A stretch of 42,357 nt of DNA from a virus. Taxonomy: Duplodnaviria > Caudoviricetes. The position numbers and the translations under genes are program-made. Of this stretch, positions 5,414-26,931 are shown piece after piece. Position 1 is the stretch's first letter, and each line of letters opens with the position of its first letter. The notes under the pieces are model-generated. The model searched no databases and had not been told where the DNA came from. It worked only from the letters and a program-made list of their open reading frames with translations. The stretch covers positions 1-42,357 of IMG/VR virus record IMGVR_UViG_3300037419_000652; one strand, 5' to 3'.

Positions 5414-7123
5414 GTGGCGACCACGATAGCCGAGTTGCAGGCCGTTGTCACGGCGGACACCACTCAGGGCGACAAGAGCCTGAAGGGCTTCCACAAGAAT
5501 CTCGACGACACCAAAGATCATTCAGACAAGGCCAGTGGCGGTGTGCTGGGCTTCACCAAGAACATTGCAGGCATTGCAGCGGGCGTCGGCGTGGCGAATC
5601 TGGTTTCTGCTGGCTTTGGCATGATTCGCGACACCGCAAGCGACATGATTCAGTCGGCGATGGATGCCAACAAGGGCATCGCACAGACCAATGCGGTCCT
5701 GGCGTCCACGCATGGCGTATCGGGCCAGACGGCGCAGAGCATCGCCGCATTGGCTGACCAATTCCAAGACCTCGAAGGCGTAGACGATGATGTGACACGC
5801 TCAGCTGCCAATATGCTGCTGACCTTCACGAACATCAAGGGCGATGTCTTCCCTGGCGCCACGCAGACAGCACTGGATATGGCGGCAGCGCTTGGAGGCA
5901 GCGCGAAAGATAGCGCCATGATGCTGGGCAAAGCGCTGAATGAACCCGCAAAGGCTGCTGGTATCTTGGGGCGCGCTGGCGTACAGCTCACTGACGATGA
6001 GCAAAAAGCCATAGACACGGCGCTGAAGCATAACGACGTGGCAAAGGCACAGAGCATCATCCTCGGCGAACTGAAAACACAGTTCGGTGGTCAGGCAAAG
6101 GCTGTCGGCGACGCGGCAGGCCCGATGGGCAAGCTCAACTTGATCTGGCAGGACGTGGGCAAGAGCATCGGCAACATGCTCATTCCGGCACTGCAACAGG
6201 CTGCGACCGTCGCAATAGGCGTGATCAACTTCTTCCAGACTGGCGGGCCACCAGCCAAGGCGCTGGCAATCATCATCGGCGGCATTCTGGTCACAGCGGT
6301 TGCAGCCTACGCAGTCAGTATGGCCAGCGCCGCCATTGCGACCATCGCCGCCACCTGGCCGATATTGCTCATCATTGCGGCGGTGGGCCTCCTGGTCGCG
6401 GGCATCATCCTGCTCGTCCAGCACTGGTCGCAGGTGACGGCGTTCCTGCAAGGTGTGTGGGCTGCTGCGGTGCGTGGTGTGCAGGTTGGGCTACAGCTCT
6501 TGGGCCAGTTCTTCAGCAATCTGGGAACAACCATCCACAATGCGCTGATGGGCGCCGCGCAGGCCATTCTCTCGTGGACACTCGGCGTTATCGCGCGCTT
6601 CCAAGAGGCGAAGGCGCAGGCTGACGCGAAGATCGCCGAGATGGTCGCCGCCGTGATCAACCGGATACGTGGCGCAGTCGGTGGCGTGATTTCAGCGGCA
6701 GGCGCGATCAAGGACGGGTTTCTAAATGCGCTCGCCGCTCTTCCGGGGAAGCTTGCGGATTTAGCAACCAATGCGATCAACCACATGATCTCGGCAATTC
6801 TCGGCATGGCGGGCAAGGTTGGCAACGCCATCTCTGGCCTGTTCAGCCACTTCCACCTGCCAGGGTTCGCAGAGGGTGGTATTGCACCGGGTGGGTTGGC
6901 CATGGTGGGCGAGCATGGGCCGGAAGTGGTAGCTCTACCAGCGGGGGCGCGTGTGTATCCCAGTGGGACCGGGCCGAGTCTGGGCGGCGGTGTTGCGGCG
7001 AGTGCGTCCGGTGGAACCATCAGCATCACCATTCCGGTCTATCTGGCTGGCCGCAAAGTGGCCGAGGTCTTGCTGCCTGACATGGTGAACGAGATCCGGC
7101 GCGCCACAGGGGGCAAGGCATGA
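5414..7123 (+). CDS. Tape measure protein
   Basis: Ala/Gly-rich helical protein with TM segments and C-terminal 'FAEGG...MVGEHGPE' motif. Confidence 0.9.
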   Translation: MATTIAELQAVVTADTTQGDKSLKGFHKNLDDTKDHSDKASGGVLGFTKNIAGIAAGVGVANLVSAGFGMIRDTASDMIQSAMDANKGIAQTNAVLASTHGVSGQTAQSIAALADQFQDLEGVDDDVTRSAANMLLTFTNIKGDVFPGATQTALDMAAALGGSAKDSAMMLGKALNEPAKAAGILGRAGVQLTDDEQKAIDTALKHNDVAKAQSIILGELKTQFGGQAKAVGDAAGPMGKLNLIWQDVGKSIGNMLIPALQQAATVAIGVINFFQTGGPPAKALAIIIGGILVTAVAAYAVSMASAAIATIAATWPILLIIAAVGLLVAGIILLVQHWSQVTAFLQGVWAAAVRGVQVGLQLLGQFFSNLGTTIHNALMGAAQAILSWTLGVIARFQEAKAQADAKIAEMVAAVINRIRGAVGGVISAAGAIKDGFLNALAALPGKLADLATNAINHMISAILGMAGKVGNAISGLFSHFHLPGFAEGGIAPGGLAMVGEHGPEVVALPAGARVYPSGTGPSLGGGVAASASGGTISITIPVYLAGRKVAEVLLPDMVNEIRRATGGKA

Positions 7124-10100
7124 CGCAACTACCACTCGGCGCGGTCTACGTCCCGCCTGTCACAAACGCTCCGCCGTACTATCTCAGCGCCTCGCCAGAC
7201 GGCAATCAGAAGCTCCTCGACGCCTGGACCGGCACACCGACGACACTCTATGGCTGCACGTTCTACCTGAGCACGCAGGGTGGCTCCGGCGCGTGGCATA
7301 GCGGCGATCTGGGCGCGACCATCGATAGCCTGCTCAACCTCGCGCAGCAAGACAGTCTCAATATGGTGCGCGTCACCGATTTTTTCAACGGTTCCGACGC
7401 GACACAGGTGTGGGATGATCCGCAAGTCTGGACAAACATTGATTACTTGGTGAGCGCCTGCCAACTGCGCGGCATGTATGTCCTGATGGATGTGGCATCA
7501 TGGGGCGCGTATATGACGAGCCAGGGCGGCACTGGCGGCAATGACCCAACGGTAGCGGCGAACTGGACCGCGAAGCTCCAGGCGTTGGGCGCGCACTACA
7601 TCAATGCGAAGAACATCTGCTGGTACTCCATTCGTGGCGAGCCGAGCGTGCCAACGGATGCCACGACCACAACCGCGCTGGTGAACTTCTATGACAGCGT
7701 GACGACGACACTCTACACTGCCGATCCCAACCACCTGATCACCGCTGGCGGCCTGCTCAACATGCAGCAGAACCCGTCGTTGTCGTGGTGGCAACAGATA
7801 TTTAGTCTCGCGCACAACAACGTGTGCAGCTACAAGGTCTACAGCCAGGACGATCTCGACTACATCAACTTCATCGGGCGCTACGTGTCTGCGCTGGGCA
7901 AGCCGCTCAGCAATCAAGAGTTTGGCGGCGAGCAGGTGCTGGGCGATAGCGTGTACAGTGGCACGCCCTACAACAATATCGCGCTGTCTCGCGCTGACTA
8001 CTTCCGCCAGGTCTATCGCCGTGGCTGGCAGGTGACGACCAGCTCGTTCATCTTCTGGAATCTCGGCTTCCAGGTCAATCCCACCGGCTTTGATGTCTCG
8101 CCTGATATTAGCCCGGCGGCATGGATGGTGATCGGTGAGGCGGCGTCGGGCCAGTCACCCGCCAGCATCACTATTGGCAGCGCGACGCTCGATGACACGC
8201 TCTATGTCAGTGGTGACTCACTCAGTATCGATCTGGCGATCAACCAGCGCAGCAAAGCCGATTTTACGCTGCTGGACACGTTGGGCGCGCAGCACTTCGA
8301 CCAGGGCGAGCCGCTCATCATCGTGGACGATTTCAACCAGCGGCTCTTCGGCGGCGTGATCACCGATGCGGTGGAGACGCAGCCCGCGCCGACAGATGAA
8401 GAGAATGGCGCGCTGCTACGACACGTGCTCAACTATGCCGACTGGCACTATCTCGCCGACAAACGCGCGTTCCCCTATAGCAACGCGAATGTGAGCTTGC
8501 AACAGGTCATCAGGGACATGATGAGCCAGGTGTTGCTCGCCGAGGGTGTGGTGGCAGCGTTTGGTGACAACTACCTCTCGCCGAATCAGTCGCTCGGTGC
8601 GGATGAGGACCTGCAGGGCTTCGTCGCGATCAACAATGCGGTGATTTCTCAGGATGCGCCGATGCCGGGCGCTCTTCATGGCTCGCTCAAAGTCGTGTGC
8701 AGCGGCGCCCAGGCGTTCCAAGCCGTAGAGGTCCGCATTCCAGTCGGGGTCATCCCTGGCATCAACGGCGCGCAGATCACCATTAGCGCGTATGCGAGGG
8801 CGAGTAGTGGAACGCCCACCCTGCGCATGTTCGTTCAGGGCGCGTCCGCTGCGCTTGGCAGCACCACGACGAAGACGCTCAGCACCACTCGCACGCGCTA
8901 CACCTGGACGGCCACCATGCCCAACCCGGTAACGGGCGGCTTCCTGGCCATTCGCTTTGACACAGGCACCCCAGCGCAAGCTGTGACGTTCTGGCTCGAT
9001 AGCCTACAAATCGAGAAGGCGGGTAGCGCGTCGGCGTGGCAACTTGGCGGCGAGGCAACGGTCCAGACAGGGCCAACCATTCAGGAGATCACGAGCAACT
9101 ACAGTAGCTGCGCGGAAAACCTGGACAGTCTCTCACAGGCGGCGGATTTCACCTGGCAGATTGACGCCTACAAGGTGCTGTGGTGTGGCGCGCCGGGTCA
9201 ACTGGTCGCGCCGTGGTCTGCGGCGATGATCGATATGGAACGTGGCAGCATCGAGGTGGAACGCGCCAACCAGCAGTACCGCAACCGCCAGTATCTGCTT
9301 GGCGCCCATGCGCAGACGAGCACGCAGATTGAGACGCGCATCGGCGACGGCACCAACCAATCATTCACCATGAGCTACGAGCTGGCGACCACGCCCACGG
9401 TGGAAGTGAAGATCGGCGCAGGGTCGTTCGTGGCCAAGACGGTAGGCATCGGCGGAGTCGATAGCGCGCGGGATTGGTATTGGAACGCAGGAAAGAACAT
9501 CGTCTTCCAGGATACCGCCGGAACCAAGCTCACGAGTAGCGACACGTTGCGCGTCACCTACGTTGGCCAGTTCCCTGTCGTGGTCCTGAGCACGAATGAC
9601 ACGGAGATCGCCGCGCAGCTTGCGCGCGAGGCGGGCGTGGGCACTGGCTACGTGGATGCAGTCGCCAGCGACAGCACGCTCAAGACGATTGCGGGCGCGT
9701 ACCAGGCGGCGGGCGGCTATCTGAGTCGCTACGGCCAGTTGGGCAAAAAGGCGAAGTTTCGCACGTTGCGCGGCGGTCTCATGCCCGGCCAACTGCTCTC
9801 GGTGGATCTGCCAGCCCATGACATCAACAACGCACAGATGCTGGTGGAGTCCGTACGACTGGCTTACACCGGCTTTTACTTCTACTACGACATCACGGCG
9901 GTGGAAGGGCCGGTCAATCAGACGTGGCCGCAGTATTTCGAAGCGCTCGCTACGAAGTCAGGGCAGACGGTGGACAAGATCAACCTGGGCAGTGGCTCGA
10001 ATCTGGCGCTGCTGCAATCCTTCACCGCCAGCAAATCGCCCTCGGCGAGCTTCACGGCCACGGTGAACGCCTGTATGTTCCCGTCCGCCACTGCCTACCC

Positions 10101-10125
10101 TTCCACGTCTACCTATCCCTGCTGA
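7120..10125 (+). CDS. Tail tip/hub protein with an N-terminal GH5-like glycoside hydrolase and an internal CBM-like domain
   Basis: Follows the tape measure gene; clan GH-A-like motifs 'LNMVRV', 'YSIRGEP', 'DPNHLIT', 'NQEFG', 'FIFWN'; 'VTFWLDSLQIEK' CBM4_9-like; hub-type C-terminus. Confidence 0.75.
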   Translation: MTQLPLGAVYVPPVTNAPPYYLSASPDGNQKLLDAWTGTPTTLYGCTFYLSTQGGSGAWHSGDLGATIDSLLNLAQQDSLNMVRVTDFFNGSDATQVWDDPQVWTNIDYLVSACQLRGMYVLMDVASWGAYMTSQGGTGGNDPTVAANWTAKLQALGAHYINAKNICWYSIRGEPSVPTDATTTTALVNFYDSVTTTLYTADPNHLITAGGLLNMQQNPSLSWWQQIFSLAHNNVCSYKVYSQDDLDYINFIGRYVSALGKPLSNQEFGGEQVLGDSVYSGTPYNNIALSRADYFRQVYRRGWQVTTSSFIFWNLGFQVNPTGFDVSPDISPAAWMVIGEAASGQSPASITIGSATLDDTLYVSGDSLSIDLAINQRSKADFTLLDTLGAQHFDQGEPLIIVDDFNQRLFGGVITDAVETQPAPTDEENGALLRHVLNYADWHYLADKRAFPYSNANVSLQQVIRDMMSQVLLAEGVVAAFGDNYLSPNQSLGADEDLQGFVAINNAVISQDAPMPGALHGSLKVVCSGAQAFQAVEVRIPVGVIPGINGAQITISAYARASSGTPTLRMFVQGASAALGSTTTKTLSTTRTRYTWTATMPNPVTGGFLAIRFDTGTPAQAVTFWLDSLQIEKAGSASAWQLGGEATVQTGPTIQEITSNYSSCAENLDSLSQAADFTWQIDAYKVLWCGAPGQLVAPWSAAMIDMERGSIEVERANQQYRNRQYLLGAHAQTSTQIETRIGDGTNQSFTMSYELATTPTVEVKIGAGSFVAKTVGIGGVDSARDWYWNAGKNIVFQDTAGTKLTSSDTLRVTYVGQFPVVVLSTNDTEIAAQLAREAGVGTGYVDAVASDSTLKTIAGAYQAAGGYLSRYGQLGKKAKFRTLRGGLMPGQLLSVDLPAHDINNAQMLVESVRLAYTGFYFYYDITAVEGPVNQTWPQYFEALATKSGQTVDKINLGSGSNLALLQSFTASKSPSASFTATVNACMFPSATAYPSTSTYPC

Positions 10126-13357: not shown

Positions 13358-13618
13358 ATGGCAGTCCGAGCGAAGTTCTACGTGAGCGAAGTCAAGGTCT
13401 CAAAAAACAACTACGGCGGCCAGAACGGCGAGTTGTTGACGACCATCAAACTTGCGCCGGTGAGTGGCAACAGCGAAGAGAACAAGCAGTTCTACCGCTG
13501 GTCGCCGAGCGGGTCAATTGATCTTGGCACCGTCAATCCTGCCGTTGTGGAACAGTTTCACATCGGCGATGAGTTCTACATCGACTTCACCCCCGCCAAT
13601 CCTGAGCAACACGAGTAG
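13358..13618 (+). CDS. Phage hypothetical protein
   Basis: RBS AGGAGG; 'VRAKF...EENKQF...PSGSI...GDEFYIDF' recalled as a widespread phage family. Confidence 0.75.
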   Translation: MAVRAKFYVSEVKVSKNNYGGQNGELLTTIKLAPVSGNSEENKQFYRWSPSGSIDLGTVNPAVVEQFHIGDEFYIDFTPANPEQHE

Positions 13619-13664
13619 CGTGTTCGCAGAGAGCGCCACCGGGCGCGAAAGGTGGTCATTTCCT

Positions 13665-14054
13665 ATGAATCTGTTTGCAGCGGCGCGAGCTGGCATGCCG
13701 CTCACGCCAGGTCAGCGCACGGTCCTGCGCGCAATCGAAAGCGTGTTACTGGCGGCGCTCGTCTCGTTCATGATTGTCTTGCCGCAACTCACCAACGGGT
13801 TTGATCTGGCGCACACCAACTGGGGCGCAATGGCGGGCGCGTTCGGTGTGGCATTCCTGATGGCGTTGGCGAAGTGGTTCAAAGCCCACGGTGACACGCC
13901 GCTGGCTGATGCGTCCGAGAATGCGGCTGGCGCGCTACGTGAGTTCGCCGACGTGCCCAATGATGTGGTGATCGAGCCGGAACTACCTGCGATGTCCGCT
14001 GATGCGTCTGAGGAGGCCGTGGCGGCACCTGTAGCGACAGAAGCGAGCAACTAG
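13665..14054 (+). CDS. Putative holin
   Basis: Two TM segments and an acidic C-tail; last gene of the lysis cassette; RBS AAAGGTGG. Confidence 0.65.
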   Translation: MNLFAAARAGMPLTPGQRTVLRAIESVLLAALVSFMIVLPQLTNGFDLAHTNWGAMAGAFGVAFLMALAKWFKAHGDTPLADASENAAGALREFADVPNDVVIEPELPAMSADASEEAVAAPVATEASN

Positions 14055-14093
14055 GAGTTCTGCGCCAGAATCGTCTCTTAGAGCGTGTGACGT

Positions 14094-14119
14094 GTGACTG
14101 CTAAAGCCGTCGAAACGTC
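14094..14119 (+). promoter_or_regulatory. Putative ECF-sigma promoter GTGAC-N17-CGTC
   Basis: Third copy of the motif, intergenic, followed by hairpin TTGGATG...CATCCAA. Confidence 0.5.
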
Positions 14120-14159
14120 TGAATAGTTGGATGCTTCGTACACATCCAATTCTCCGCCC

Positions 14160-14195
14160 AAAGCCGCGCTAACTCCCCAGTGGCGTGGCTTTGTG
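14160..14195 (+). terminator. Intrinsic terminator-like hairpin
   Basis: AAAGCCGCGC...GCGTGGCTTT followed by GTG; weak U-tract. Confidence 0.5.
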
Positions 14196-14202
14196 GTATA
14201 CT
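14192..14202 (+). promoter_or_regulatory. Extended -10 promoter TGTGGTATACT
   Basis: Matches TRTGnTATAAT at all but one position. Confidence 0.55.
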
Positions 14203-14234
14203 GAGAGCCTGATGAAGCGCTGGATTATCCAGCC

Positions 14235-14278
14235 AAACGCCCACCAACTTCCGTCTCTGACTGGTGGGCGTTTCTTTG
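14235..14278 (+). terminator. Intrinsic terminator
   Basis: 12-bp perfect stem AAACGCCCACCA/TGGTGGGCGTTT then CTTTG. Confidence 0.7.
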
Positions 14279-14288
14279 TGTTATACTC
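14277..14288 (+). promoter_or_regulatory. Extended -10 promoter TGTGTTATACTC driving the tRNA-like RNAs
   Basis: About 10 nt upstream of the first tRNA-like 5' end; identical 12-mer at 29663-29674. Confidence 0.65.
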
Positions 14289-14297
14289 TAGCTTGCT

Positions 14298-14393
14298 AGG
14301 GATGTCGCGTAACGGTGCGGTTGCTGGGACGCCAGCGACTAAGCGCGAGCGGTCGCGCCGCTTGACTGGGTTCAACTCCCAGCGTCCCTGCCA
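14298..14393 (+). ncRNA. tRNA-like RNA 1 (long variable arm, G73, CCA, no canonical anticodon loop)
   Basis: Acceptor AGGGATG/CGTCCCT, discriminator G, CCA; T-arm CTGGG-TTCAACT-CCCAG; 8-bp stem with a 4-nt loop where the anticodon arm should be. Confidence 0.75.
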
Positions 14394-14394
14394 G

Positions 14395-14511
14395 ACCCTG
14401 GTAGCTCAGAGGTAGAGCGCTCGCGGGCGATGAAGCGGCGAAAGCTGTAAAACCAGCAATGCCGTGGAGCAGTGCGAGAGGTCGCTGGTTCAAATCCAGC
14501 CTAGGGTTCCG
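14395..14511 (+). ncRNA. tRNA-like RNA 2 with a 49-nt structured region replacing the anticodon loop
   Basis: Acceptor ACCCTGG/CTAGGGT; D-arm TA-GCTC-AGAGGTA-GAGC; anticodon stem CTCGC/GCGAG; T-arm GCTGG-TTCAAAT-CCAGC. Confidence 0.8.
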
Positions 14512-14521
14512 ATAGACAATA

Positions 14522-14594
14522 GGGGGATGGCCGTATGGATACAATCATGCGGTGCACAGTCTTTAGAGCGTAGCTCTTCGCCGTAAGCGCCCCC
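14522..14594 (+). ncRNA. Unclassified structured RNA downstream of the tRNA-like pair
   Basis: GGGGG/CCCCC closing stem, ATGG/CCGT stem, hairpins CCGTATG/CATGCGG and AGAGC/GCTCT; same CCGATAGA trailer as RNA 2. Confidence 0.45.
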
Positions 14595-14605
14595 GATAGA
14601 AATTA

Positions 14606-14643
14606 GAATGCCCCAGGATTAACACCCCTGGGGCATTCGCTTT
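14606..14643. terminator. Probable bidirectional terminator
   Basis: 12-bp perfect stem GAATGCCCCAGG/CCTGGGGCATTC between convergent units. Confidence 0.7.
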
Positions 14644-15064
14644 AGCGCGCAGCGATCAGCCCACGTTGCTCTTGCTCGATCTCCGCGATCGTCAGGAAAA
14701 AGCGCTGCATCACCGTATAGGTGCTGACGCTACGGCGTAGCTGCACGGTCATGGTGGCGGCGATCAGGCCGCAGATCGTCTCGACCCGCACTTGGCACAT
14801 ACGGCAGAGCAGCGCCATGGCGGGATGCTGCGTGGTGTGTGGCATCGGCTCAACGCTGTGTGTCGCCAGGCAGAAGGCGCAGGCGCGCTTCGATAGCAGA
14901 TCATCGCGTCGTGGCGCTCCAGGTGGCGGTGTGGTCTCGCGGATAATCCTGTTCCCGCCGATGCGCTGCGGATAGCCTGTAGTGCGTGGCCAGCGCGCCT
15001 GTGTGTAGGGCGCTGCGGTGGGGATCAGCGCCACGTCTACGAAAACTCGTTCTCCCTCTTCCAT
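14642..15064 (-). CDS. Hypothetical Zn-finger protein
   Basis: CAFC...CRMC; own sigma-70 promoter and RBS GAAGGG. Confidence 0.65.
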   Translation of the reverse strand: MEEGERVFVDVALIPTAAPYTQARWPRTTGYPQRIGGNRIIRETTPPPGAPRRDDLLSKRACAFCLATHSVEPMPHTTQHPAMALLCRMCQVRVETICGLIAATMTVQLRRSVSTYTVMQRFFLTIAEIEQEQRGLIAAR

Positions 15065-15106
15065 ACCAGAATCGCCCTTCTAACCGCTTGTGTAGCGGTG
15101 AAGGGC

Positions 15107-15135
15107 AGCATAGAGACGTTGTGATTGGCTGTCAA
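15107..15135 (-). promoter_or_regulatory. Sigma-70 promoter TTGACA-N17-TATGCT
   Basis: Near-consensus match upstream of ATG 15064. Confidence 0.7.
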
Positions 15136-15174
15136 GCGGCAATTTCGTTAAGGATTGTGCGGCGGGATAACAAG

Positions 15175-15483
15175 TTAGTCGTCTTCGCGCGAGACGATAG
15201 CGCAGGCCAGGAGCCAGACGCATCCCGGAATGTGCCTCTCATCAGCGCCACAACACAGACACACGCCTGATGCACGTAACGCGGTCTCGCTAAGAGTTGA
15301 GAGCCAGATCACCACCTGTGACATCTCGGCGTTCATCGCGTGGACATACTGGCGGTTCTCTTCGCAGAGTTGCAGTGACTTGCGCGTGCTCTCTAGCTCG
15401 GCCAAGAGCGCCTTCGCATCATCCTGGGTCGCTGCTTGTTTGCGGACTCGCCTACGAATGGCGGTCAGTTCTTTGCCGTCCAT
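15175..15483 (-). CDS. Hypothetical protein (coiled-coil plus CxxC...HxxxC)
   Basis: ORF with RBS GAGG; 'CLCCG...HIPGC'. Confidence 0.65.
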   Translation of the reverse strand: MDGKELTAIRRRVRKQAATQDDAKALLAELESTRKSLQLCEENRQYVHAMNAEMSQVVIWLSTLSETALRASGVCLCCGADERHIPGCVWLLACAIVSREDD

Positions 15484-25757: not shown

Positions 25758-26096
25758 ATGGCCACCAAGACGCTCGCCATCGAGCAGCTCGCGCAGGAGA
25801 TTCAGCTCTGCCAGTTGCCATCCCCCGTCGCGGAGCATCGCTTCGCCAAGGATATCAAACGCCGCTGGCGCTTCGATCTGGCGTGGCCTGCGGCGATGCT
25901 GGCCGTGGAGGTGGACGGCGGCACCTGGAGCGGCGGCCGTCACGTCACCGGCAGAGGCTTCGAGGGTGACTGCGAGAAGCTGAACACGGCGACCCTCATG
26001 GGCTGGCGTGTCCTGCGCTTCACGACGGACATGGTGCGGCGTGGCGAGGCCATCGGCGCGATCCTCGCTGCGTTCGATAATCAGCAGGCGGCGTAG
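25758..26096 (+). CDS. PD-(D/E)xK endonuclease (DUF559/Vsr-like)
   Basis: 'EHRF...RWRFDLAWP...AVEVDGG...H...GWRVLRF'. Confidence 0.8.
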   Translation: MATKTLAIEQLAQEIQLCQLPSPVAEHRFAKDIKRRWRFDLAWPAAMLAVEVDGGTWSGGRHVTGRGFEGDCEKLNTATLMGWRVLRFTTDMVRRGEAIGAILAAFDNQQAA

Positions 26097-26100
26097 CCCT

Positions 26101-26931
26101 ATGCGAGATGCGACACCTGACGCGCTAACACAGTTCATCCGCGAACTAAACACCTACCCTGTGCTCTCTCCTGAACAGCATCTCGCGCTGATCGAGAAAG
26201 CGCAGGCAGGCGATCAAGACGCCATGAACACGATGGTTACGCACAACATGCGGCTGGTCATCGCGATAGCGACTCGCAGCGCCGGGCAGGGCGTGCCACT
26301 CATGGATCTGATCCAGGAGGGTTCCTTTGGCGTGAGGCGCGCAGTTGAGAAGTTTGACGCGACCAAAGGCTTTCAGTTCAGCACCTACGCGACGCCATGG
26401 ATACAGCAAGCGGTTGGACGCACTATCGAGGACATGAGTCGGACGATTCGCATTCCATCCTACAAACACCAGCAAGTGCGCAAGATCAAACGCGACCTTG
26501 CGCACGATGACGTGGCCCGTGCGATTGCGTTGGCTGAGGCGCAAGCGGAATGGGAAGTGGTCTCGCTCGATAGAGAACTACACCCAGATGATCCCTATGA
26601 CGAAACCACACTGGCTGATCTGATCCCATCATCCAATTTACGCATGAATGTGGAGCATATTGCGAATCAGCAACTGCTGCTCTCGCTCTTTGCGCGCGCA
26701 AAGCTCACCAAGCGTGAACGAGCGGTCATCATCTACCACTACGGGTTGGACGGCAAGGGAGCGCGCACACTTGAAGCGACTGGCGCGCTCATCATCACCG
26801 CTATCGGCAAAAAGCGCATGGGTATTACCCGCGAGCGTGTGCGCCAGATCGAGGCGAACGCCCTGCGCAAGCTACGTCTGGCAGCCACCCACAGTCGAGA
26901 CCGTGACGCGCTGCTGGCGCTGGTCGCGTAG
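26101..26931 (+). CDS. RNA polymerase sigma-70 family factor (RpoD-like regions 1.2, 2, 4)
   Basis: 'HNMRLVIAIA', 'DLIQEG', 'AVEKFD..KGFQFSTYATPWI', 'RTIRIP', 'ITRERVRQIE..ALRKLR'. Confidence 0.92.
   Translation: MRDATPDALTQFIRELNTYPVLSPEQHLALIEKAQAGDQDAMNTMVTHNMRLVIAIATRSAGQGVPLMDLIQEGSFGVRRAVEKFDATKGFQFSTYATPWIQQAVGRTIEDMSRTIRIPSYKHQQVRKIKRDLAHDDVARAIALAEAQAEWEVVSLDRELHPDDPYDETTLADLIPSSNLRMNVEHIANQQLLLSLFARAKLTKRERAVIIYHYGLDGKGARTLEATGALIITAIGKKRMGITRERVRQIEANALRKLRLAATHSRDRDALLALVA

Follow-up and report, generated by a model that had tools for sequence, protein, structure and literature searches.

A tRNA-shaped RNA gene with Trp-type acceptor marks and a predicted CCA clamp in a temperate soil phage: a possible non-decoding decoy

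The window analyzed here is the whole 42-kb contig of a temperate phage (42,357 nt), and it carries two tRNA-shaped RNA genes placed head-to-tail. The first of them, element 1, is a Trp-marked body whose CCA is clamped by UGG, and it lies beside a partner, element 2, with a kink-turn arm; this form, found in a single copy, is real and odd. We consider it rather probable that element 1 is a functional RNA. Its best explanation, to which we give somewhat more than one chance in three (roughly 0.37), would be a processed, non-decoding and poorly charged decoy that occupies host proteins binding tRNA by its acceptor/T-arm half.

The contig was present in one soil-metagenome run and its gene content includes tail genes, a holin-like gene (ending at 14054), a tyrosine integrase, RecT, a sigma factor, a primase-polymerase, terminase, portal and capsid. 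Two of these products have further features: the sigma factor (26008-26931) is RpoD-like and about 40% identical to its best matches, and a 1001-aa tail protein (7120-10125) has a glycoside hydrolase 5 domain. Ktedonobacterales is the likely host order, since the closest named terminases come from MAGs of that order (49-51% identity), with Streptomyces lower down at 48%. The only close relative phage that we found, L001 (holin 79%), carries both flanking genes, separated there by a terminator alone; what we call the cassette, about 14055-14600 in the window, is absent from L001 and is therefore accessory. There was no tRNA match in the whole 42 kb of L001, and a search with the endolysin-like protein gave the L001 contig as its sole match. 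The terminase scans covered 5/64 and 4/64 parts of IMG/VR. Among 34 terminase-related records, seven had tRNA matches, and none of the seven phage loci inspected resembles element 1 or element 2. In another observation on terminase-related phages, L287 (from G025) showed by eye two YrlA-like RNAs ahead of a Ro60-looking gene. A BLAST of 14050-14660 against phages and plasmids returned, among the best 20 of 486 matches of one search and all nine of the other, only matches of 5-6% coverage, which corresponded to tRNA arms where annotated. One public contig, with a depth of 14.7, showed 0 differences over 13400-15400, including element 1; it may be the source of the window DNA, and contigs drop variants, so that this agreement is not independent. 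A second public run matched the flanking genes only. The public runs listed as carrying this DNA included no RNA run, which speaks neither for nor against expression. Next to the cassette, a 140-aa ORF (14642-15064, minus strand) is conserved in L001 and has two zinc-finger-like CxxC motifs, with no family in Pfam, PHROGs or NCBIfam.

The features of the cassette are the following.

14194..14277, plus strand: upstream unit, with a second extended -10 motif, a predicted small RNA of about 75 nt and a terminator at 14235-14273
14279..14287, plus strand: predicted extended -10 promoter TG-N-TATACT (sequence motif), transcription start at about 14294-14295
14298..14393, plus strand: element 1, tRNA-shaped RNA gene (tRNA-body descriptor, ensemble folding)
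14298..14304, plus strand: element 1 acceptor 5' strand, 7/7 pairs with 14383-14389; A1-U72, G2-C71, G3-C70 and G4-C69 as in tRNA-Trp
14305..14319, plus strand: element 1 U8-C9 and D region, with a 3-4-bp stem, a 6-nt loop and A21 missing in the short-D fold; alternatively, 14307-14310 pairs with 14343-14346
14320..14339, plus strand: hairpin A, 8 bp with a GACG loop; UGG (14325-14327) paired with CCA (14332-14334)
14346..14364, plus strand: hairpin B, 7-8 bp, in long-arm position, or in anticodon-stem position in the long-D-loop fold
14366..14382, plus strand: element 1 T arm, 5 bp and the 7-nt loop UUCAACU
14390..14393, plus strand: discriminator G73 (14390) and encoded CCA (14391-14393) of element 1, from the sequence
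14395..14508, plus strand: element 2, tRNA body (Rfam tRNA 51.6 bits) with its own 7/7 acceptor, U73 and no encoded CCA
14425..14473, plus strand: 49-nt arm replacing the element 2 anticodon loop, with a kink-turn (14427-14434 with 14466-14470), a 5-bp helix, an internal loop and an apical hairpin
14606..14638, no strand assigned: terminator-like hairpin closing the cassette (terminator/hairpin prediction), similar to a hairpin at the L001 empty site

In element 1 all 20 canonical stem pairs are intact despite length changes in the D, anticodon and variable regions. The tRNA-body descriptor detected a pair of adjacent bodies in the window and none in any of 600 windows made by dinucleotide resampling. 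ARAGORN made no call at element 1 at default, and at a 95% threshold without introns element 1 was the only locus listed (score 96.7); the Rfam tRNA model did not report it even at E<=10. Much of the anatomy proposed in the initial annotation was recovered by ensemble folding: the 7-bp acceptor reached pair probabilities of 0.89-1.0, the 5-bp T arm is intact, the discriminator G and the encoded CCA are seen in the sequence, and all eight pairs of the hairpin in the anticodon place, closed on GACG, reached 0.99-1.0. Two pairings of that annotation were not sustained. Its variable arm GCGCGA/TCGCGC had a pair probability of 0.04, with the different register 14346-14364 at 0.57-0.94, and its alternative fold of GGGACGC in the hairpin with GCGTCCC of the 3' acceptor strand had a probability of 0.00 and was 5.6 kcal/mol worse. 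The shortened D arm occurs in one fold, but two other folds, one with no D stem and one with a long D loop, lie within about 2 kcal/mol. The ensemble energies were -47.2 for the short D stem, -47.6 for the helix that removes the D stem, -46.2 for the variable arm first proposed and -45.9 for the long D loop. The long-D-loop fold pairs G10-U13 with 14343-14346, brings back A21 and G26 and places hairpin A inside the D loop; hairpin B then takes the place of the anticodon stem, closed by a 5-nt loop, and the long variable arm is lost. The core is non-canonical in other respects, with A15 facing A48, no A21 in the short-D fold and a weak D stem (0.17-0.29), and for these reasons the L shape of element 1 is uncertain.

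An open 7-nt anticodon loop was absent from all computed low-energy folds, and CCA was paired with UGG in every one of them. In these models the top of hairpin A is the codon UGG against the anticodon CCA, and closing these three pairs is worth 9.6 kcal/mol. The CCA belongs to a 10-nt segment that is paired shut, and not to the open 7-nt loop with U33 and CCA at 34-36 that tRNA-Trp has; taken alone, a CCA within a 10-nt loop is a modest coincidence. Since no low-energy fold has a normal anticodon loop, element 1 is likely unable to decode, as was originally suggested. It should be noted that, in a simple pairing test, 14 ordinary tRNAs among 503 bodies also closed their loops, so closure in silico is not proof; only element 1 did so with G-C pairs on a 4-nt loop.

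The amino acid identity of element 1 was compared with 126 distinct tRNAs parsed from Ktedonobacterales loci (21 Trp and 105 others). Its acceptor and discriminator best match Trp, at up to 13/15 positions against a Ser mean of 7.5, and A1-U72, G2-C71, G3-C70, G4-C69 and G73 are all present. The determinants listed for Bacillus TrpRS in the sections consulted of the review by Giege and Eriani (PMC9976931) are G73, G2-C71, G3-C70, G4-C69 and the first pair. A1 was found in 21/21 Trp and in 0/105 other host-order tRNAs; because 20/21 of the Trp set had been fetched by a pattern demanding AGGG, which enriched it, the 0/105 alone is free of bias. AGG/CCT with G73 was found in 0/184 tRNA bodies of a phage sample drawn without regard to the acceptor. 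The label 'Ser-like' given to element 1 in the initial annotation is weakly supported. G73, G2-C71, U8-C9, C11-G24, U44 and a long second hairpin are compatible with it, and the first two of these are acceptor marks of tRNA-Ser. Against it stand A1-U72, G3-C70 and, in the fold first proposed, the missing part of the D loop between G19 and the D stem, including A21. The host-order tRNA-Ser start with G1-G2-A3 in 17/17 cases, an acceptor that element 1 does not share, and those sections of the same review name G1-C72 and G2-C71 as pairs that most bacterial tRNA-Ser conserve, and tertiary shape as the feature read by the SerRS of E. coli. As to a long variable arm in Ser orientation on a normal core, several folds of element 1 lie within 2-3 kcal/mol of one another, and one of them has no long arm. 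The D-arm positions best match Ser(GCU) (10/12), and with the long-D-loop numbering the best positional match is also Ser(GCU), 38/54, with Trp at 36/54. Two covariance models were made, one from 34 genes of long-arm Trp and one from 23 of Ser, and element 1 scored 29.9 bits and 25.9 bits with them, respectively; true members score 45-94 and the models cross-score heavily. By its sequence, then, element 1 leans to Trp and appears to be a member of neither tRNA-Trp nor tRNA-Ser. Of 8635 residues encoded by 27 ORFs, 1.97% are Trp, which gives no sign of Trp avoidance by the phage. As observations on the host order, tRNA-Ser(GCU) lies directly upstream of tRNA-Trp in 9/20 Ktedonobacterales loci (L425, L430, L436, L438, L439, L441-L444), and nine of these 20 Trp genes have no U8.

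Long-arm (class II-like) tRNA-Trp genes of viral contigs came up when we scanned for bodies with a Trp-type acceptor and a long middle. In a second scan, the pattern prescribed a CCA loop, a CCT end and G73; it matched 68 loci, 5 of them unparsed, and yielded 46 distinct sequences. Of these, 43 have full acceptor and anticodon stems, for example L565:370-458 and L624:401-484. Besides these, UCA-anticodon forms are found at L537 and L539. The stems of these genes covary, with two-sided changes at 17/23 pairs among 34 aligned sequences. They resemble element 1 in the Trp acceptor, G73 and the long arm, and a subset also shares U8-C9 and the G10-C11-R12 D stem. Seven of the 43 have U8-C9, and the best one matches element 1 at 37/51 positions; 21/43 have three unpaired bases before the T stem. 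However, they keep a normal CUCCAAA loop, as the pattern required, whereas element 1 has no open loop, and held-out members score 51-72 bits compared with the 29.9 bits of element 1. A long-arm tRNA-Trp parent would explain a Ser-like D arm and a long arm without Ser identity. Long-arm tRNAs are named as Leu, Ser and Tyr only in the consulted sections of PMC9976931, and no long-arm tRNA-Trp of phages was found among the papers listed by a literature search. The combination of G73 and a long arm in a tRNA-Trp(CCA) raises the question of whether Trp or Ser is inserted at UGG. Other phage bodies with an AGGG acceptor and G73 (L538:501-589, L542:501-597, L541 and L546) have no recognizable anticodon arm and are unlike element 1.

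Element 2, overlooked in the initial annotation, starts 1 nt past the CCA of element 1 and is arguably the stranger of the two. Outside the acceptor and the loop it is identical to a Ktedonobacterales tRNA-Val(CAC) at 46/50 positions, while its acceptor differs from that tRNA (2/7 identical) and yet is fully paired. The kink-turn descriptor of its arm was matched in 13/20000 shuffles and in 4/1728 window tiles. The 5' strand of the arm, GCRNNGA, is the kink-turn strand that starts 6/8 host-order T-box leaders, and T-box matches numbered 13-22 per genome in 5/5 host-order genomes. The internal loop of the arm has only 4+3 nt, the cassette has no T-box antiterminator motif or Rfam T-box match, and L7Ae-family kink-turn binders were found in 0/169 Ktedonobacterales genomes. 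Both elements are also linked by four perfect complements, three of 8 nt and one of 7 nt, between the hairpin strands of element 1 (14321-14363) and element 2 (14418-14488), such that each strand of both element 1 hairpins has one of them. This arrangement had P ~2e-4 in shuffles and occurred in 2/1404 window tiles and 0/189 phage tRNA bodies. Cofolding the two elements gave no intermolecular pairs, the duplex energy was ordinary (172/500 shuffles as good), and a cross helix in the dimer had a probability of 0.001; kissing between their loops, evaluated by eye, amounts to only 3 bp and was discarded. An intron in either element was rejected as well, as the ARAGORN -i calls force broken stems. 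Were 42 nt excised from element 2, G32-G33 would remain; no intron-less relative was found.

The search for homologues left both elements as singletons. None of the loci recovered with element 1 patterns (3 viral, 34 metagenome and 29 viral pattern loci) is a clamped-arm homologue, and there was none in 169 Ktedonobacterales genomes or in 401 genomes of the phylum; with no homologue, there is therefore no covariation for element 1. The kink-turn pattern of element 2 matched 23 viral loci, none being a tRNA body with that arm. In the host order, a long-insert pattern matched 22/169 genomes, in most cases through a motif that lies by chance ahead of a normal tRNA, and seven others that we inspected are not homologues; a broad long-insert scan covered 7/64 parts of IMG/VR. 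The tallies over 169 genomes include G112, G150 and G158, which are unpublished, and no sequence or claim rests on those singly. Among the papers listed by the literature searches, we found nothing matching a kink-turn tRNA look-alike, a non-canonical phage tRNA of such form or a phage tRNA decoy.

With respect to expression, TGnTATA[A/C]T occurs three times in the whole window, two of them within the cassette; a -35/-10 promoter scanner reported none at 14279-14287. The upstream unit (14194-14277) shares a 9-mer with the element 2 arm and contains a short reading frame in which a Trp codon comes early; over the first 28 nt of the unit, a locus from Ktedonobacterales, L308, matches at 26/28 (E 5e-4, 1/169 genomes). 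The stretches 14060-14193 and 14521-14600 are also structured and non-coding, with no Rfam family above the cut-off. Two further readings of the region were discarded: a 76-codon frame (14185-14415) spanning element 1 had no NCBIfam match as a gene, and an attP remnant would be 4.3 kb from the integrase, with element 2 apparently devoid of the host 3' acceptor strand.

If element 1 is a decoy, both elements would be transcribed constitutively as a dimer from the extended -10 in the lysogen, and host RNase P would cut at 14298 and 14395, leaving the CCA plus 1 nt to trim. The trimmed element 1 would be a stable RNA unable to enter decoding. Its ancestor may be a tRNA-Trp, probably one of the long-arm genes of phages, and its charging would be slight or nil: TrpRS requires the CCA anticodon to be open, and SerRS would meet neither G1-C72 and A3-U70 nor a normal core. 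Since its acceptor/T-arm half is intact, the most economical job would be to occupy the proteins that read that half; it might titrate a reader of the acceptor end or elbow, and a toxin that modifies tRNA, belonging to a toxin-antitoxin or defence system, would be one example. The clamped arm would meanwhile keep element 1 off ribosomes and out of the reach of anticodon nucleases. The CCA end is a known target of modifying toxins, and one such toxin, according to the part of PMC7450476 consulted, prefers long-arm tRNA-Ser and also modified E. coli tRNA-Trp. The 20 intact stem pairs of element 1, the new, fully paired acceptor on a 46/50 tRNA-Val body in element 2, and the promoter motif, CCA and terminator that frame the pair, argue for the decoy. 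Against it count the singleton state without covariation, the closeness of the Trp and Ser scores and the uncertain core.

The main rival, which we regard as unlikely but worth serious consideration, is that the pair is a recently scrambled and decaying one: tRNA genes would have been acquired, and a local duplication or inversion would have rebuilt the middle of element 1, leaving useless RNAs. The singleton result in every search, the absence from L001, the three length changes in element 1 and its perfect complements to element 2 (P ~2e-4) all fit this history, and mobile elements often leave non-canonical tRNA fragments, as stated in the portion of PMC9897764 consulted. Local copying of this kind may have built the middle of element 1, in which case its hairpins would have arisen without selection. 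However, the acceptor, T, D and anticodon stems of both elements have no broken pair, element 2 gained a new fully paired acceptor and a kink-turn found in only 13/20000 shuffles, and the promoter motif, CCA and terminator were kept. The same complements would also serve a switch: on pairing with element 2 or with some other RNA, hairpin A would open and free its CCA, and element 1, uncharged, would then act on TrpRS or on the leaders of Trp T-boxes. The richness of the host order in T-boxes and the effect on trpS1 of the CCA-bearing tRNA-Other of B. cereus (PMC3399842, in the part consulted) speak for it, but the cofold has no intermolecular pairs, 172/500 shuffles equal the duplex energy, the cross helix is at 0.001, and the opened loop would have 10 nt and no U33; we hold this switch to be a long shot. 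A broader version seems just as improbable: a two-RNA lock-and-key in which a self-locked long-arm tRNA-Trp, its CCA hidden by UGG, and a co-transcribed tRNA-Val body with a complementary arm like stem I of T-boxes would control host tRNA sensing (T-box, TrpRS or tRNA-directed defence).

The tRNA bodies could instead be RNase P processing tags or scaffolds and the work be done by cargo arms, chiefly the kink-turn arm of element 2, which might cap the anticodon of a host tRNA. The head-to-tail spacing of 1 nt, the strand shared with 6/8 T-box leaders and the many T-box matches in 5/5 genomes agree with this proposal; we judge it decidedly unlikely, given the lack of an antiterminator motif and of an Rfam T-box match, the small 4+3-nt internal loop, the absence of L7Ae-family binders in 169 genomes and the Trp marks of element 1, which it leaves unexplained. 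In the model first put forward, element 1 is serylated by SerRS, does not decode, and acts as a non-ribosomal seryl donor or a sink for SerRS/EF-Tu. SerRS ignores the anticodon (PMC9976931, sections consulted); it also charges odd allo-tRNAs (PMC5389517, part consulted), and the Ser score of element 1 is only 4 bits below that for long-arm Trp, to which the compatible marks (G73, G2-C71, C11-G24, U8-C9, U44 and the long hairpin B) and the D-arm match to Ser(GCU) can be added. Nevertheless, A1-U72 and G3-C70 replace the G1-C72 and A3-U70 of 17/17 host-order tRNA-Ser, 5-6 extra unpaired nt precede the favoured long arm (the hairpin B register) and one fold has no such arm. Nor did the donor role find its partner: no aminoacyl-tRNA-using transferase was detected among 59 ORFs (Pfam, PHROGs) or 43 ORFs (NCBIfam), many of them familyless. 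Altogether, we consider serylation quite doubtful. That element 1 is an odd decoder, with hairpin B as the anticodon arm (7-nt loop, U33, CGC, G37) and hairpin A as an extra arm, is hardly credible: the Ser model does align hairpin B to the anticodon stem, and irregular tRNAs with extra loops exist (PMC5389517, part consulted), but this register leaves no base 26 and a variable region of 2 nt, and in the ensemble the loop is narrowed to 3 nt by further pairs (0.83-0.94).

If the decoy reading holds, phages would counter tRNA-directed host enzymes with RNAs that keep acceptor and elbow and are unusable and uncuttable at the anticodon. Non-decoding phage tRNA-like RNAs have been seen for decades with no agreed job. 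The present 42-kb phage offers a compact test case: its two look-alikes differ in their arms and follow a single predicted promoter, and a relative provides the empty site naturally.

Among known systems, RNA C (species 1 RNA) of phage T4 is a stable tRNA-like RNA in a phage tRNA transcript, and element 1 can be likened to it by description. A tmRNA was rejected for element 1, which has G3-C70 and not G3-U70 and gave no ARAGORN or Rfam tmRNA match (T arm only). Inserts of another kind were observed in phage tRNA bodies: in 37/85 long-insert bodies a covarying hairpin is followed by CAGCAA, often in tandem arrays (L004, L022, L026, L103, L105, L126 and others), and such an insert, annotated as tRNA-Lys, is also present in a cultured Erwinia jumbo phage. 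A model of 35 of these inserts found two in a held-out Erwinia phage locus and no match in the window at E<=10; the model is AT-rich, and GC-rich members could be missed. The anticodon arms of Lak megaphage tRNAs have 'enigmatic' tRNA introns, as described in the part of PMC6784885 consulted, and they share with element 2 an insert in the anticodon arm. YrlA and bacterial Y RNAs mimic tRNA and are cut by RNase P in one species (PMC4201824, in part). Element 2 holds one GNCGAANG motif of that kind, a motif that occurs 70 times in the window; the RF02553 score of 16.2 bits, against a cut-off of 69, is the dimeric-tRNA artefact of which the same article warns, and the YrlA hairpin between T and D arms would need the cross helix at 0.001, so both candidates were discarded. 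A Ro60 (TROVE) gene, which a Y RNA should have within 4 kb, was absent among 59 phage ORFs and present in 7/169 host-order genomes.

The closest likenesses are with irregular tRNAs. Mukai et al. (PMC5389517), in the portions consulted, described irregular tRNA polycistrons and allo-tRNAs, with odd bodies tolerated by SerRS and some RNAs charged and non-translating. The irregular tRNAs share with elements 1 and 2 a soil origin and the head-to-tail arrangement, and with element 1 a mismatch between acceptor identity and anticodon; one entry has a 38-nt D loop. Five of six cassette motifs had 0 matches in the part of their supplement that was searched, and no toxin-antitoxin genes were recognized near the cassette. 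Full-length rows there keep anticodon loops, in contrast to the clamped 4-nt loop of element 1. The comparison with allo-tRNA models called for by the initial annotation turned out unfavourable: allo-tRNAs have an 8/4 or 9/3 branch, a Sec-like long D stem with a tetraloop and a usable anticodon loop, whereas the main fold of element 1 is 7/5, with 8/4 only among suboptimal folds, and the other two traits are absent. The tRNA-Other of B. cereus (PMC3399842, in the part consulted) is a pseudo-tRNA-Trp that is poorly charged, stays off polysomes, lies on a mobile island and has a role outside translation; with its CCA it affects trpS1, and the CCA anticodon was tested on a T-box. Both it and element 1 are of Trp type, a likeness drawn by description, but tRNA-Other keeps the CCA anticodon, while element 1 has its CCA shut within a helix and carries two long hairpins. 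By analogy with the available accounts, element 1 may work like the non-translating irregular tRNAs (PMC5389517) and tRNA-Other, outside the structural definition of allo-tRNAs.
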